The position numbers and the translations under genes were made by a program. Under the pieces are notes generated by a model that saw only the letters and a program-made list of their open reading frames with translations, ran no database searches and was not told the origin of the DNA. From positions 1,952,001 to 2,016,000 of the forward strand of contig CAWBKB010000001.1 in the NCBI GenBank assembly GCA_963789265.1: a stretch of 64,000 nucleotides of DNA, written 5' to 3'. Positions 51,850 to 54,328 of the stretch are shown here, one piece after another (position 1 is the first letter of the stretch; each line of letters starts with the position of its first letter). Origin of the DNA: an uncultured delta proteobacterium (GTDB lineage Bacteria; Desulfobacterota; Desulfomonilia; Desulfomonilales; Desulfomonilaceae).

Positions 51850-52335
51850 TCACGCGCATTCGGATGGATCTCCTTGGATCTTGGAAATTGCGTGCTCCAA
51901 GGCCGGCAGAACAGCTTGCAGGTTCTCAAGGGCCCCTTTGGGGCTTCCCGGCAGGTTGATTATCAAGGTCCGCCCGCGGACACCGGCCACGGCTCTGGAA
52001 ATCATCGCGTGCGGCGTCTTTGGCAGCCCGGCCAGCCGCATGGCCTCCGCCATCCCGGGTACAAGCCTCTCCACCACGGCCATGGTCGCTTCAGGTGTAA
52101 CATCTCGCGGTGAGAGACCGGTACCGCCGGTGGTCAATATGAGATCCGCGCCGTTCTCGTCAGCCCAAGAAATCAACTTGCTGCTGATTGCTTCTTTCTC
52201 ATCCGGAACGACAGCGCTCCAAGGCACATCAATACCGGCCGATTGAAGCATTCCAATCAGTTGGGGCCCCGAGGCATCGCTTCGCAACCCTTGGGCGGAC
52301 CGGTCACTAACCGTTAAGATTGCCGCACGCAACAT
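51850..52335 (-). CDS. mog: Molybdopterin adenylyltransferase (MogA/MoaB)
   Basis: ILTVSD, VPDE, TTGGTGLSPRDVTPEAT, INLPGSPKG. Confidence 0.95.
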   Translation of the reverse strand: MLRAAILTVSDRSAQGLRSDASGPQLIGMLQSAGIDVPWSAVVPDEKEAISSKLISWADENGADLILTTGGTGLSPRDVTPEATMAVVERLVPGMAEAMRLAGLPKTPHAMISRAVAGVRGRTLIINLPGSPKGALENLQAVLPALEHAISKIQGDPSECA

Positions 52336-52729
52336 GTTTGGCGAACCCTGTATCGCTCTCGCCGTATCCCTCTGTCCGGGGAATGCCCCGCTCGAAGTGG
52401 CGTACCTGCATATCGCCCGATTCCAGTGCCTGTTTAAGGAATCCGGCAGCCTTCCACGGATTCACTTTCGAACCGCACGTGAAGATATCGACTGCCGCGT
52501 ATCCGTGTTCGGGCCATGTATGAATTGTCAGGTGAGACTCGGCGATAACCACAACGCCGGATACACCCTGAGGGTTGAAATCCTGAAATGCAGTTTTCAG
52601 AACAGTAGCTCCCGCGACTTCTGCCGCTTGAGACATGATTTTTTCCAGGTAATCAAGGTTGTCGATTTTTTGCCTGTTACAGGACCAAAGCTCGATCAGA
52701 AGATGAATACCTAAGGCTTTCATCGTCAT
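52307..52729 (-). CDS. speD: S-adenosylmethionine decarboxylase proenzyme
   Basis: LGIHLLIEL, PQGVSGVVVIAESHLTIHTWPEHGYAAVDIFTCG (ES self-cleavage site). Confidence 0.96.
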   Translation of the reverse strand: MTMKALGIHLLIELWSCNRQKIDNLDYLEKIMSQAAEVAGATVLKTAFQDFNPQGVSGVVVIAESHLTIHTWPEHGYAAVDIFTCGSKVNPWKAAGFLKQALESGDMQVRHFERGIPRTEGYGESDTGFAKHVACGNLNG

Positions 52730-52903
52730 CCCCCGTACCGAGTCGGCTGTTTGCCTCTCGAAGAAATTGTTACCAAAAATTTACGGCCAGCAACCCGTCT
52801 TCGCAAATCGCTGACTGGGGAACATGGCCTGCCTCCGATGCCCTTAGATTCGACCGCTATGCAAATAGCCTTCAGGGATACTCCCCTTCCCTGGGCACAC
52901 GGT

Positions 52904-52932
52904 AAAAAAAATTGAGGAAGCCGACTTCCTCA
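52904..52932 (-). terminator. Intrinsic terminator/attenuator in the speD leader
   Basis: Minus strand TGAGGAAG-TCGG-CTTCCTCA (perfect 8-bp stem), then A and 8 T, ~175 nt upstream of the speD start. Confidence 0.8.
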
Positions 52933-53010
52933 CCAGTGCAGGTCAGGGTCTCAATCTTACGAGGAGGAAACCACTGGTTTCCCCGCTCAGGTCAAACCCT
53001 CCAGTCACAG
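52904..53010 (-). promoter_or_regulatory. Candidate cis-regulatory RNA (riboswitch/attenuator) upstream of speD
   Basis: Nested stems AGGGUUU/AGACCCU and GGGGAAACC/GGUUUCCUC; duplicated UGACCUG and ACUGG words; directly followed by the terminator. Confidence 0.55.
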
Positions 53011-53446
53011 ATTTTGTATGAGCGAAAGCGAGAAAAGAGGTACAAGCATCCCAACCGGAGGGGCAATATTCCCCGCAAAGAAGCTGCAAGGAAAGGATGT
53101 GAATCTTTTTCCGGTTCATCTGCCTGCCCCAGGGCGGTAAGCCCTTTTGATGAGTAAAACGTACCTATCTGTCTTTTTTTCTTGTCACTTGTCAAGCAAA
53201 AAAGATCCCTTTCGCGCCCTCATTTAACCTCGGTAAAATACCGTCTTCTCTTTAGCTTCGGGCCAAGGGATAGACCAGGAAAAAAAGACGCCTCAGGCCG
53301 AAACGCACGCGCAGACGACCTCTTCAGCGCCCTTAATGGAGTGCTTGATCAAAATCTTTTTGCCGAAGTCATAATAACTCAAGTTTCACTATCTGACAAT
53401 ATGCTTGTCACGCATTCACAAAACTGTGGCCGGTGGCGCCTGATCA

Positions 53447-54328
53447 TCATGTAGCCGGGGGACAAAGCCTAGCGAGACGGGCCGGTTCACCGCATCTGTG
53501 GCAGGTTTCTCGGCACGGGTCAAGGCGCGCCCGGCAGCGCCCGCAAAATCTGGGAGCATCGGTTTCCAGGAGGGGCACGGGGAACCCGCACCGACCGCAT
53601 TTTTCAGAAACTTCCGGTGTGTAAGCGCCGCAATTGGGGCAAGAGATCAACGGGCCCTCCCCCAACCGCGTGAAGGAATGGTTCTTCCGAAATTCTTGAA
53701 TCCTATAGTTCATGAGCCAGCCCATAAACGCCATAAGGGGTATTAAGTAGAGCATGGCCGTGCCGGGATAGGCCGCGACGAGGAAATTGTAGAATCCATG
53801 CAGGCAGGCAGCGACCAGGAACCCTTTGGTTATGGTCAAGAGCTCTCCCTCTCGCTGAAAACGTGCTAAGCCCATCGAATAGCCCCACATGGCGGCAAAC
53901 ATCACATGAGCAGGGGTGGCAAAAACCGCCCTGGGCACAACAATTGCCGGCCCGAGCATACCCATGTATATCGTGTTCTCCACCGATGCAAAGCCGAGAG
54001 CAGCAGTTGCGGAATAGACCAGTCCGTCAATCGGCTCCCGGAAATCGCTGCTCCTGTAAATGGAAATCCAGACTGCGGCCAGCTTGAAAAACTCTTCGAT
54101 CGGGCCGATCAGCAAAAAACTTACTTCTGCAGACCGTAAAAGCGTTGGCTGACGAAGTCCGGCACCTGTTAGATTTTCAACCACAAATGTTGGAATGGTG
54201 CACGCGCACCCGCACAAGAACACGCGAATGATATTCTCGAAGGACCTCAAATTGTTATGCGCCTTCCGATGAAAATACCACAACCATATCAATCCGGGCG
54301 TTAGCCCGAGAATCGGAAGAGCCGTCAC
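53447..54328 (-). CDS. PrsW-family intramembrane glutamic protease with C-terminal zinc ribbons
   Basis: GPIEEFFK, EPIDGLVY...LGFASVEN, PAH, LHGFYN; CPNC/CGRC/CGRC/CHRC. Confidence 0.9.
   Translation of the reverse strand: MTALPILGLTPGLIWLWYFHRKAHNNLRSFENIIRVFLCGCACTIPTFVVENLTGAGLRQPTLLRSAEVSFLLIGPIEEFFKLAAVWISIYRSSDFREPIDGLVYSATAALGFASVENTIYMGMLGPAIVVPRAVFATPAHVMFAAMWGYSMGLARFQREGELLTITKGFLVAACLHGFYNFLVAAYPGTAMLYLIPLMAFMGWLMNYRIQEFRKNHSFTRLGEGPLISCPNCGAYTPEVSEKCGRCGFPVPLLETDAPRFCGRCRARLDPCRETCHRCGEPARLARLCPPAT

Follow-up and report, generated by a model that had tools for sequence, protein, structure and literature searches.

We lean towards reading the element at positions 53010-52904 of the minus strand as the 3' end of a translated leader open reading frame (uORF) that would control speD in cis. 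A leader frame acting on speD in this manner would be a leader-peptide attenuator, and a translating ribosome, rather than a riboswitch, probably sets speD output. The element lies in the window, that is, the whole 64,000-nucleotide stretch of Desulfomonilaceae DNA that was analysed. A ligand-sensing non-coding RNA had been proposed at these positions in a preliminary description, and that proposal is not supported: 53010-52943 turned out to be codons 37-58 and the stop codon of a conserved single-copy uORF. The promoter, leader and gene are laid out as follows, in the direction of transcription.

53195-53190, minus strand: TTGACA, -35-like hexamer of the leader promoter, with a T-run 5' of it (leader alignment).
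53144-53132, minus strand: 5' hairpin GGGC-TTACC-GCCC, just 5' of the uORF ribosome-binding site (sequence); relatives have a hairpin there with other stem letters (GGGGC/GCCCC, AGAGGC/GCCUCG and GGGGUU/CUCCCC, by inspection).
53119-52943, minus strand: uORF of 58 codons plus TGA, MNRKKIHILSLQLLCGEYCPSGWDACTSFLAFAHTKSVTGGFDLSGETSGFLLVRLRP-stop (MNRK...LSGETSGFLLVRLRP-stop; ORF list, peptide profile and pN/pS by frame).
53002-52997, minus strand: GGAGGG, a Shine-Dalgarno-like purine box inside the uORF at codons 40-41 (Gly-Gly), whose GGG pairs with CCC of codon 58.
52988-52961, minus strand: H1, the inner hairpin, codons 44-53 (LSGETSGFLL), 12 bp with one bulge (covariation, shuffles); in the window sequence its arms are GAG.GGGGAAACC (52988-52976) and GGTTTCCTC.CTC (52972-52961), with loop AGT.
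52960-52943, minus strand: codons 54-58 (VRLRP) and stop TGA (pN/pS by frame, no gaps, fixed stop site).
52932-52904, minus strand: H2, TGAGGAAG-TCGG-CTTCCTCA (52932-52913), followed by A and T8 (52911-52904; terminator scan).
52903-52730, minus strand: distal leader, a structured spacer of about 175 nt (conserved spacing, end block).
52760-52739, minus strand: nearly invariant distal-leader hairpin CGAGAGGC...GCCGACTCG (leader alignment).
52734-52729, minus strand: speD Shine-Dalgarno box GGGGGA (sequence).
52729-52307, minus strand: speD, encoding the proenzyme of a class 1b S-adenosylmethionine decarboxylase (TIGR03330 at 148.6 bits, cut-off 75.65).

The preliminary description had read the element as a leader RNA built on two duplicated words and a stem enclosing the inner hairpin, which the window sequence contains as given here.

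53005-53001 and 52937-52933, minus strand: the two copies of ACTGG.
52994-52988 and 52945-52939, minus strand: the two copies of TGACCTG.
53000-52994 and 52951-52945, minus strand: the enclosing stem arms AGGGTTT and AGACCCT.

All the strings that it quoted lie on the minus strand where it had placed them, and its spacings were correct (175 nt to speD, about 515 nt to the PrsW stop). The open reading frame that spans the whole element up to 52943 was overlooked in it. Its placement of the element in the speD leader rather than at a gene end was borne out, the best-conserved intergenic block being found there, with 75-79% identity between 53021-52908 and the corresponding DNA of other genera. 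The 121-nt fold has a predicted energy of -41.5 kcal/mol (z = -2.33), and 3 of 200 shuffled sequences were equally stable. Among the speD leaders of the family the block is conserved and H1 carries compensatory changes.

We infer translation of the uORF from its evolutionary signature. The frame is free of internal stops in all 60 matches to the peptide profile, compared with 256 and 93 stops in the two other frames, and it ends at a single fixed position at which the three stop codons interchange (TAG 25, TGA 20 and TAA 6, of 60). An ATG stands at the aligned start in 56 of the 60, preceded at 4-16 nt by a Shine-Dalgarno-like 4-mer in 45 of these 56, and 44 of the 56 frames have exactly 58 codons. 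In four loci the frame does not run cleanly from ATG to stop: one is 2 nt short, and the other three, from genomes of a single genus, lack an in-frame ATG. Nine of the 60 extend 5-7 codons past the usual stop. Eight of these have a 5-codon extension and stop at a UGA that either opens the H2 core stem or precedes it by 2 nt, and the ninth stops at a UAG within the H2 loop.

Selection along the frame was measured by pN/pS in 65 sequence pairs of 70-99.5% nucleotide identity, which are not independent of one another. Codons 2-35 gave 0.81 in frame and 0.82 and 0.81 out of frame, in such a way that the first 35 codons appear neutral as a peptide, yet their frame and length are maintained. By contrast, codons 44-53 gave 0.34 in frame against 1.20 and 1.20 out of frame, and codons 54-58 gave 0.10 in frame (21 synonymous and 6 non-synonymous differences), against 0 synonymous and 26 non-synonymous differences in frame +1 and a pN/pS of 0.43 in frame +2. 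This pattern shows purifying selection at the amino-acid level on codons 44-58, in the correct frame only, although amino-acid and RNA constraints coincide in codons 44-53, so the low value there may partly stem from H1. From H1 to codon 58 the alignment has no gaps in 59 rows. Among the 44 peptides of standard length, 31 close with Arg/Lys-Pro-stop and 13 have Ser instead of Pro as the last residue; Arg57 is replaced by Lys in 11. Two hallmarks of arrest leader peptides are therefore present, namely a short leader frame 5' of speD on the same strand and conservation at the C-terminal end, the part that would lie in the exit tunnel. Base composition also differs along the frame, with a C/G ratio of 1.41 in codons 1-36 versus 0.73-0.82 downstream.

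The last 15 codons of the uORF contain H1, and comparison among relatives supports H1 as a conserved hairpin with compensatory base changes: 91% of its alignment cells are paired, 8 of its 12 pairs are changed on both sides, and it is more stable than dinucleotide shuffles (mean z = -2.97, with 52 of 59 below -2). RNAalifold on raw MAFFT alignments returned H1 alone, or H1 together with a long-range CCUCC:GGGGG pairing. The AGGGUUU:AGACCCU stem enclosing it stood in part, since 4-5 bp are kept (GGG:CCC and its neighbours) whereas the middle pair is open in 52 of 59; the resulting 4-bp helix is 89% paired, and 6 sequences carry a change on both sides of one pair. The duplicated words UGACCUG and ACUGG are present in the window but are not conserved even within the genus, as relatives read TGACCTC, and ACGGG, TCGGG or GCGGG. 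An alternative fold that paired GACU with AGUC of the terminator is equally unconserved within the genus, the loops of relatives reading GCCG, GCTG or GCTC, and the argument for a switch drawn from the repeated words and this fold is lost with them.

The stop codon of the uORF lies 10 nt before H2, in such a way that codons 54-58, the stop and the next 10 nt make up the 28-nt gap between the two hairpins in the window. H2 has 8 bp there, 4 of them G-C, followed by A and T8, and it has the make-up of an intrinsic terminator in the window only. A hairpin 3' of the uORF stop is found in relatives too, with a median of -12.8 kcal/mol and a mean z of -1.69 (43 of 59 below -1); the base of the best hairpin is at most 10 nt from the stop, or overlaps it, in 49 of 60. 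Six of the 8 H2 pairs are changed on both sides, with only 69% paired in one register. The label of leader attenuator, already used in the preliminary description, fits the window, where the element closes with a textbook terminator, but only 7 of 60 genomes have a U-run (at least 6 U of 9) after this hairpin, and intrinsic termination can therefore not be the output across the family. We considered and rejected the idea that ribosomes at CCC-UGA move on, by programmed +1 frameshifting or by read-through, to the UGA that opens H2, since this second stop is not a conserved feature: the window and three congeners have it in the +1 frame, another genus has it in the 0 frame, and two congeners, which read CGAGGAAG, lack it.

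This arrangement could also work as a trp-type attenuator without a ligand-binding peptide, a reading that we regard as unlikely. H1 would be the 1:2 pairing, H2 the 3:4 terminator, and a 2:3 pairing the antiterminator. A ribosome lingering on segment 1, at the GGAGGG box and the H1 barrier, would allow 2:3 to pair and transcription to read through, and one reaching the stop would allow H1 and H2 to form and transcription to end. Purine 5' arms and pyrimidine 3' arms are kept in both hairpins, which makes 2:3 pairing possible, and a GGAGG occurs within 22 nt 5' of H1 in 50 of 56 sequences, 6-7 nt from segment 1. The 2:3 pairing is strong in the window's genus, where U-runs also occur (-18.7 to -24.4 kcal/mol, z -2.8 to -4.6, in five relatives); in the window itself it reaches -15.3 kcal/mol (z -1.1). 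The 1:2 pairing, for comparison, lies at about -18. Over the whole family, however, 2:3 does not outperform shuffled sequence (mean z -0.37, 18 of 60 below -1), the U-run is lacking in most genomes, and, Leu-Leu at codons 52-53 apart, no run of codons for a sensed, pathway-related amino acid is conserved; after its start codon the window's peptide contains no Met. Moreover, codons 54-58 lie outside all four segments, and their strong selection at the amino-acid level would be left unexplained.

We hold it to be very unlikely that the hairpins bind a metabolite or a protein as an RNA switch, with the frame incidental or serving to unfold the RNA. The covariation of H1 is real, and the leader is long, at about 470 nt, with structure over its whole length. 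A helix between the start-codon region and codons ~21-24 shows visible compensatory variants. At fixed positions this helix is 54% paired, against 30-47% for slid partners, and its duplex energy is weakly better than that of shuffles (mean z -0.93), which is suggestive, and only suggestive, of a real helix. The last ~45 nt 5' of speD are at least 90% conserved. Together with the neutral but length-constrained first half of the frame, these features make a sensor RNA elsewhere in the leader possible. Against an RNA switch stand the frame open in all 60 matches with its interchanging stop codons, and the low pN/pS of codons 44-58 in the correct frame only. The flagged stretch also differs from a generic riboswitch, a non-coding aptamer whose conserved unpaired letters form the ligand pocket, in that its conserved unpaired letters are codons 54-58. 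Finally, cmscan of 52600-53600 on both strands at E <= 10 found no Rfam family at gathering score, including those covering SAM riboswitches, the speF leader and sRNAs; the 4 matches below gathering score were P24 (17 versus 100 bits), sroE (14 versus 51) and two human lncRNA models.

In the distal leader, pairing of the H1 3' arm (CCUCC) with the speD Shine-Dalgarno sequence (GGGGG) was no stronger than with shuffled arms (-12.0 versus -12.0 kcal/mol, mean z -0.01) and was dropped. Folding of the whole leader with a ribosome at the stop or at segment 1 gave no consistent change in Shine-Dalgarno pairing in 7 genomes, and a local anti-Shine-Dalgarno pairing of the window's fold, GUUCCCC:GGGGGAU, is not conserved in other genera. 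A mini-ORF after GGAGGC-N-GGCCATG (about 52827 in the window) is not a gene, since its ATG is AAG in several genera. The true start of speD is probably its second ATG, at 52723; the first is out of frame in a relative (locus L036). SpeD is the sole PF02675 match in the window's genome, which has one PF01564 spermidine-synthase match elsewhere.

In the genomes searched with a peptide profile the uORF is confined to one family. A profile made from 16 peptides found one uORF per genome in 60 of 70 Desulfomonilaceae genomes, in 21 of 26 genera, and none in 52 genomes of the sister family or in 393 other genomes sampled from the phylum. Among the 10 genomes that it missed, two do have the uORF (G077, found with a 56-peptide profile, and G080, found by eye and with a covariance model), a query with the window's SpeD gave no speD match in seven, and in the last one a contig end truncates speD. 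Scanning genome contigs with an 18-nt pattern gave 57 loci, most of them titled as Desulfomonile, Desulfomonilaceae, Desulfomonilales, Syntrophaceae or 'delta proteobacterium' MAGs; about 12 come from unrelated taxa, which fits a rough estimate of about 100 chance matches (17 fixed bases, 596 Gb). In 58 of the 60 profile loci speD lies downstream on the same strand, and the remaining 2 run off contig ends; spacing is 165-217 nt in 57 of the 58 and 403 nt in one.

We give very little credence to an independent small gene, for a small protein or a small RNA, that merely adjoins speD, with the speD promoter 3' of 52904: the unit in the window does have promoter-like and terminator signals of its own, and the peptide has occasionally been annotated by gene callers as a hypothetical protein (34 clusters, none with a Pfam domain), but the uORF was never found away from speD in the 58 loci with downstream DNA or in G077 and G080, the spacing is nearly fixed, most genomes lack the terminator U-run, amino-acid-level selection is absent over two thirds of the peptide, which is unlike a functional small protein, and a consensus scan called no promoter-like site between 52904 and speD. 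That scan did not call the leader promoter either, whose CTTGACA is at least 90% conserved in 58 aligned leaders and visible in 16 of 16 upstream regions.

The leader-peptide attenuator that we favour builds on the uORF, its linkage to speD, the peptide-level selection at its C-terminus, the covariation of H1 and the geometry of the hairpins. The leader transcript would begin past the conserved TTGACA promoter and carry the 58-codon frame, of which the first ~35 codons would act as RNA and spacing and not as peptide, and the last ~15 residues (LSGE...FLLVRLRP) would form a conserved nascent-peptide module. A ribosome with the stop codon in its A site would almost exactly fill the 28 nt, with H1 behind it and H2 ahead, and in other genomes a ribosome at the stop would cover the lower stem or the 5' arm of H2. 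A small molecule of the SAM/polyamine pathway may determine whether the nascent peptide slows or arrests the ribosome as it reaches the stop or the position just before it; we infer this stalling, and likewise which ligand is sensed, in which direction speD is regulated and whether transcription or translation is the output. The dwell time and position of the stalled ribosome would then determine whether H2 forms, which in the window's genus would act as an intrinsic terminator, and the same ribosome may also gate Rho loading on the C-rich first half of the uORF. In the window the H2 core begins just beyond the expected footprint of a terminating ribosome, so a stalled ribosome would not obviously block the terminator there.

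S-adenosylmethionine decarboxylase is the committing step of spermidine synthesis, and its control by a peptide uORF in animals and plants is the textbook example. Known bacterial leader peptides of the pathway are SpeFL, for speF, and MdtU, for a spermidine exporter; the literature searched held none for speD and no earlier description of this uORF. If true, a speD leader peptide would be the third polyamine-pathway peptide of the arrest type, unrelated in sequence to the other two and found in a phylum far from theirs. The uORF also illustrates RNA-level constraint in one half of a frame and peptide-level constraint in the other, and the uORF and its hairpins merit annotation in Desulfomonilaceae genomes, where the alternative is intergenic DNA or a riboswitch candidate.

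Among the closest known systems are leader peptides of the same pathway. In the account given in 10.1101/604074 and PMC7815308, the ribosome and nascent SpeFL peptide of the E. coli speF-potE leader capture ornithine and stall just before the stop, which affects Rho and mRNA structure. Leader position, C-terminal conservation and pathway are, on that account, common to the present uORF, which differs in its length (58 codons versus 34), in its target (speD, not speF), and in having a covarying internal hairpin and, in the window, an intrinsic terminator. MdtU is outlined in PMC7815308 as a 34-codon uORF in the mRNA of the E. coli spermidine exporter mdtJI, which must be translated for spermidine to induce the exporter, with Rho involved and conservation mainly C-terminal. 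As outlined there its architecture is very close to the present one, although target gene and taxon are others and here the 3' region of the uORF pairs with the speD ribosome-binding site no better than shuffled sequence does. In hhalign comparisons of the 56-peptide profile with the E. coli K-12 peptides, no homology was detected to SpeFL (probability 0.25%, 1 aligned column) or MdtU (0.15%, 1 aligned column).

Output of the tryptophanase operon (tna) is Rho-dependent. Its leader peptide TnaC is described in PMC8450073 and PMC8429421 as arresting at the stop with Pro as the last residue, through ligand-dependent inhibition of the release factor; the Arg/Lys-Pro-stop of most standard-length peptides here resembles this ending, whereas TnaC has 24 residues against 58. 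The leaders trpL, hisL and pheL share with the present one a frame overlapping segment 1 and, in the window's genus, four segments and a U-run. They differ from it in that the uORF has no cognate codon run, its peptide sequence is under selection, and 2:3 pairing and the U-run are not conserved family-wide. In trpL the stop lies between segments 1 and 2, while here it comes after segment 2.

The eukaryotic AdoMetDC uORFs (MAGDIS of mammalian AMD1 and that of plant SAMDC) are likewise peptide uORFs 5' of an S-adenosylmethionine decarboxylase gene, in another domain of life and with scanning initiation. MAGDIS acts through a polyamine-dependent stall at termination. Regulation of AMD1 by arrest peptides is the topic of PMC13025110, and the plant SAMDC family is placed among polyamine-responsive uORFs in the account of PMC3426882. 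We propose, tentatively, that the present uORF is an independently arisen bacterial counterpart, in which the peptide …LSGE…FLLVRLRP-stop would sense a polyamine-pathway metabolite at termination and set speD expression, and the RNA of the first half (start-codon helix, C-rich tract) would gate initiation or Rho access. If so, one half of a single 58-codon frame would be read as RNA and the other as peptide, which would make the frame a two-layer sensor. Sensing of polyamines by the bacterial uORF would mean convergence with its eukaryotic counterparts and not descent, and a speD leader peptide of this kind would offer a testable case of convergence in AdoMetDC control between bacteria and eukaryotes.

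The stretch at window positions 52904-53010 (minus strand), described preliminarily as a candidate riboswitch or attenuator in the speD leader, is in our reading the 3' end of a leader-peptide attenuator upstream of speD, an assignment we hold with moderate confidence. A 58-codon frame missed in that description, with the sequence MNRKKIHILSLQLLCGEYCPSGWDACTSFLAFAHTKSVTGGFDLSGETSGFLLVRLRP*, was found in the ORF list on the same strand. The layout of this leader ORF (uORF) in the window is:

53119-52943, minus strand: uORF, 58 codons
52988-52961, minus strand: inner hairpin H1, codons 44-53 of the uORF
Inside the second TGACCTG, minus strand: uORF stop codon
52932-52913, minus strand: hairpin H2, the terminator stem, beginning 10 nt past the uORF stop
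52911-52904, minus strand: T8

The sequence features reported earlier for the window are confirmed. The inner hairpin lies where it had been placed, the proposed terminator is there as a hairpin with its T8 and is also terminator-like by consensus scan, and the suggested Rfam check by cmscan (Rfam 15, 52600-53600, E up to 10) returned no score near gathering. The enclosing stem, AGGGTTT (53000-52994) with AGACCCT (52951-52945), exists in the window, but just GGG:CCC plus one or two pairs are kept across the Desulfomonilaceae; the duplicated words TGACCTG and ACTGG are likewise present but lack conservation even among genomes of the same genus (congeners), and the alternative GACU/AGUC pairing is not conserved even there. 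A 121-nt stretch folds with -41.5 kcal/mol (z = -2.33), 3 of 200 shuffles being equally good. Neither Pfam nor NCBIfam contains a match to the uORF peptide, which in a collection of 5.8 billion proteins forms 34 clusters, every one unnamed or a "hypothetical protein".

A DNA search of the 471-nt leader against 40 relatives matched it whole in five of six congeners (78-89% identity) and blockwise in ten genomes from other genera within the family, where the best-conserved block was the one containing the flagged element (53021-52908, 75-79% identity); no hit in the 16 genomes of the sister family went below E = 0.002. From a conserved ATG (MNR/MDW/MIR...), the 16 upstream regions share an open frame, which in 15 of them stops after ...FLLVRLRP despite indels and in the sixteenth continues for 5 codons. 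A 16-peptide profile found a single strong match, stop-free inside, in each of 60 of the 70 genomes of the order and family (21 of 26 genera), and none in 52 genomes of the sister family in the same class. With a 56-peptide profile, six matches were obtained among 401 genomes sampled from the phylum, all within Desulfomonilaceae, with none in the 393 sampled outside it, and the record titles of contig pattern matches include Desulfomonile, Desulfomonilaceae and Desulfomonilales; as far as sampled, the uORF is restricted to Desulfomonilaceae. Ten family genomes were missed by the 16-peptide profile: one (G077) has the uORF by the 56-peptide profile, another (G080) carries a divergent copy that inspection by eye and a covariance model both picked up, seven (completeness 73-97%) show no speD match with the window SpeD as query, and in one a contig end cuts speD. 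Of 60 uORF loci, 58 have speD downstream in the same orientation, at 165-217 nt in 57 and 403 nt in one, and the remaining two run off their contigs. With the missed genomes so accounted for, the uORF is present wherever the family's speD and its upstream DNA are readable, and both its existence and its linkage to speD are well supported.

The window SpeD matches TIGR03330 with 148.6 bits (cut-off 75.65) and is the sole AdoMet_dc match in its genome, which has one spermidine-synthase match elsewhere. Its assignment as a SAM decarboxylase is putative, given that some SpeD homologues are described in PMC10407285 as having turned into arginine or ornithine decarboxylases. As the first ATG is out of frame in a relative's leader (L036), translation of speD probably begins at the second (52723). 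In all 15 sister-family loci (L148-L162), speD has no long leader and follows, at a distance of 9-53 nt, a gene encoding an HTH_3 + Cupin_2 regulator, so that the two neighbouring lineages appear to control speD differently. On its other side, the window speD end is overlapped by 29 nt by a MoaB/MogA-type molybdenum-cofactor gene (51850-52335, minus strand), an unusual partner that is probably co-transcribed in view of the overlap. The interval separating the PrsW stop from the speD-leader promoter contains a promoter-like TTGTCA-17-TATTAT (53399-53371, minus strand, matching at 10 of 12 positions) and, 3' of it, a terminator-like hairpin with T7 (53306-53288, minus strand); conserved among congeners only, this unit may be a small transcript of its own, ~85 nt long, or just the terminator of PrsW.

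That the uORF is translated is suggested by several of its features. An ATG occupies the aligned start in 56 of the 60 loci, with an SD-like 4-mer 4-16 nt upstream in 45 of them, and exactly 58 codons lead to the last conserved codon in 44 of the 56 (56-62 in the others). The stops at the conserved end are 25 TAG, 20 TGA and 6 TAA; another nine loci read 5-7 codons beyond this point, the eight 5-codon extensions stopping at a UGA that opens the H2 core stem or lies 2 nt before it, and the ninth at a UAG in the H2 loop. The other two frames hold 256 and 93 stops across the same stretch; their absence from frame 0 is partly by construction, and the profile search separately reported no internal stops. 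Three genomes of one genus (L081-L083) lack an in-frame ATG, CTG or ATT after a GGGAGA box being possible starts. At locus L077, from a MAG (G068), the uORF is 2 nt shorter than in genus relatives and its frame is broken, leaving the conserved ATG out of frame with the conserved C-terminus, by a genuine frameshift or by misassembly.

pN/pS along the uORF by frame (65 sequence pairs of 70-99.5% nucleotide identity; pairs are non-independent and all three frames use the same pairs)
Codons 2-35: in frame 0.81; frame +1 0.82; frame +2 0.81
Codons 44-53: in frame 0.34; frame +1 1.20; frame +2 1.20
Codons 54-58: in frame 0.10 (21 synonymous, 6 non-synonymous differences); frame +1 0 synonymous, 26 non-synonymous; frame +2 0.43

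These values indicate that the first two thirds of the peptide vary freely with frame and length retained, and that the last ~15 residues are under selection at the amino acid level.

H1 is 91% paired, with two-sided changes at 8 of its 12 pairs; these include the variants GAGCUG:CAGCUC and GAGCGG:CCGCUC, double changes that alter the peptide too. Against shuffles the mean z of H1 is -2.97, with 52 of 59 below -2. A second hairpin 3' of the stop occurs in essentially all genomes (median -12.8 kcal/mol; mean z -1.69, 43 of 59 below -1); it shows two-sided changes at 6 of 8 pairs but is only 69% paired in a single register. The U-run behind it reaches at least six U in nine positions in 7 of 60 genomes and at least five in 13, the U8 of the window being the strongest of the set. 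No indels were found in 59 aligned sequences from the last H1 pair to codon 58, and in the window the gap between H1 and H2 is exactly 28 nt (52960-52933). The footprint of a ribosome extends ~12 nt 5' and ~15 nt 3' from the first base in the P site, so that a ribosome whose A site holds the stop codon fits this gap almost exactly. Of 60 genomes, 49 have the base of their most stable hairpin no more than 10 nt from the stop or overlapping with it, and 8 have it at 11-14 nt; in the remaining 3, the selection fell on another hairpin, 21-23 nt away.

The chief alternative is a trp-type attenuator with the 3' arm of H1 pairing to the 5' arm of H2. In five relatives of the window's genus this pairing is strong (-18.7 to -24.4 kcal/mol, z -2.8 to -4.6), and it reaches -15.3 kcal/mol (z -1.1) in the window itself, but family-wide it is at chance level (mean z -0.37), and such an attenuator gives no account of the selection on codons 54-58, so we regard it as rather doubtful. 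A sensor RNA elsewhere in the speD leader is possible, with two candidate regions. The uORF start codon and codons 2-3 (AUGAACCGG, 53119-53108) are complementary to codons ~21-24 (CCGGUU, ~53056-53050, minus strand), with matching double changes in other genera such as UGAUCCGAAA:GUUCGGAUUC and AAUGGACUGGACU:CGUCCGGGUCCGUG, although this helix is weak against shuffles (mean z -0.93, 15 of 56 below -2). The last 45 nt 5' of speD are nearly invariant; here a hairpin CGAGAGGC...GCCGACTCG, then GTAC, then GGGGGATGACGATG (52760-52721, minus strand) is near-invariant across the family's genera and much more conserved than the other distal leader. A pure riboswitch at 52904-53010 is unlikely, as this stretch overlaps a conserved uORF, and that earlier reading gives way to the leader-peptide attenuator.

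The components observed for the leader-peptide attenuator are a translated-looking ORF tied to speD, a constrained peptide C-terminus, a covarying H1, an intrinsic terminator in the window, and H2 positioned where the front of a terminating ribosome would be. We propose that the C-terminal nascent peptide would slow or arrest the ribosome at or near the stop, depending on a metabolite of the pathway, and that its dwell time would set H2 formation, ribosome queuing over the first half of the uORF, or both. Pro-stop and UGA-C are poor termination contexts. Codons 1-36 (53119-53012) have family-wide 27% C and 19% G (C/G 1.41, versus 0.73-0.82 in the remaining leader downstream), a composition that resembles a Rho loading site, and this C-rich, G-poor half may serve as one. 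What TnaC, SpeFL and MdtU each respond to is a substrate of the protein they regulate; on that model SAM or putrescine would be an inducer, whereas on the model of the eukaryotic AdoMetDC uORF spermidine would instead act as a repressor. Our proposals on stalling, on the ligand and on the sign of regulation are hypotheses.

Neither a leader peptide nor a riboswitch of bacterial speD was described in the full-text literature searched, although subscription journals or supplements could hold one. We liken the uORF to the ligand-sensing leader peptides of polyamine genes, yet it falls outside the MdtU and SpeFL families (hhalign probabilities 0.15% and 0.25%, respectively). SpeFL (10.1101/604074) is one close case, and the closest architecture is that of MdtU, described in PMC7815308 as a 34-codon uORF with C-terminal conservation and the involvement of Rho and spermidine.
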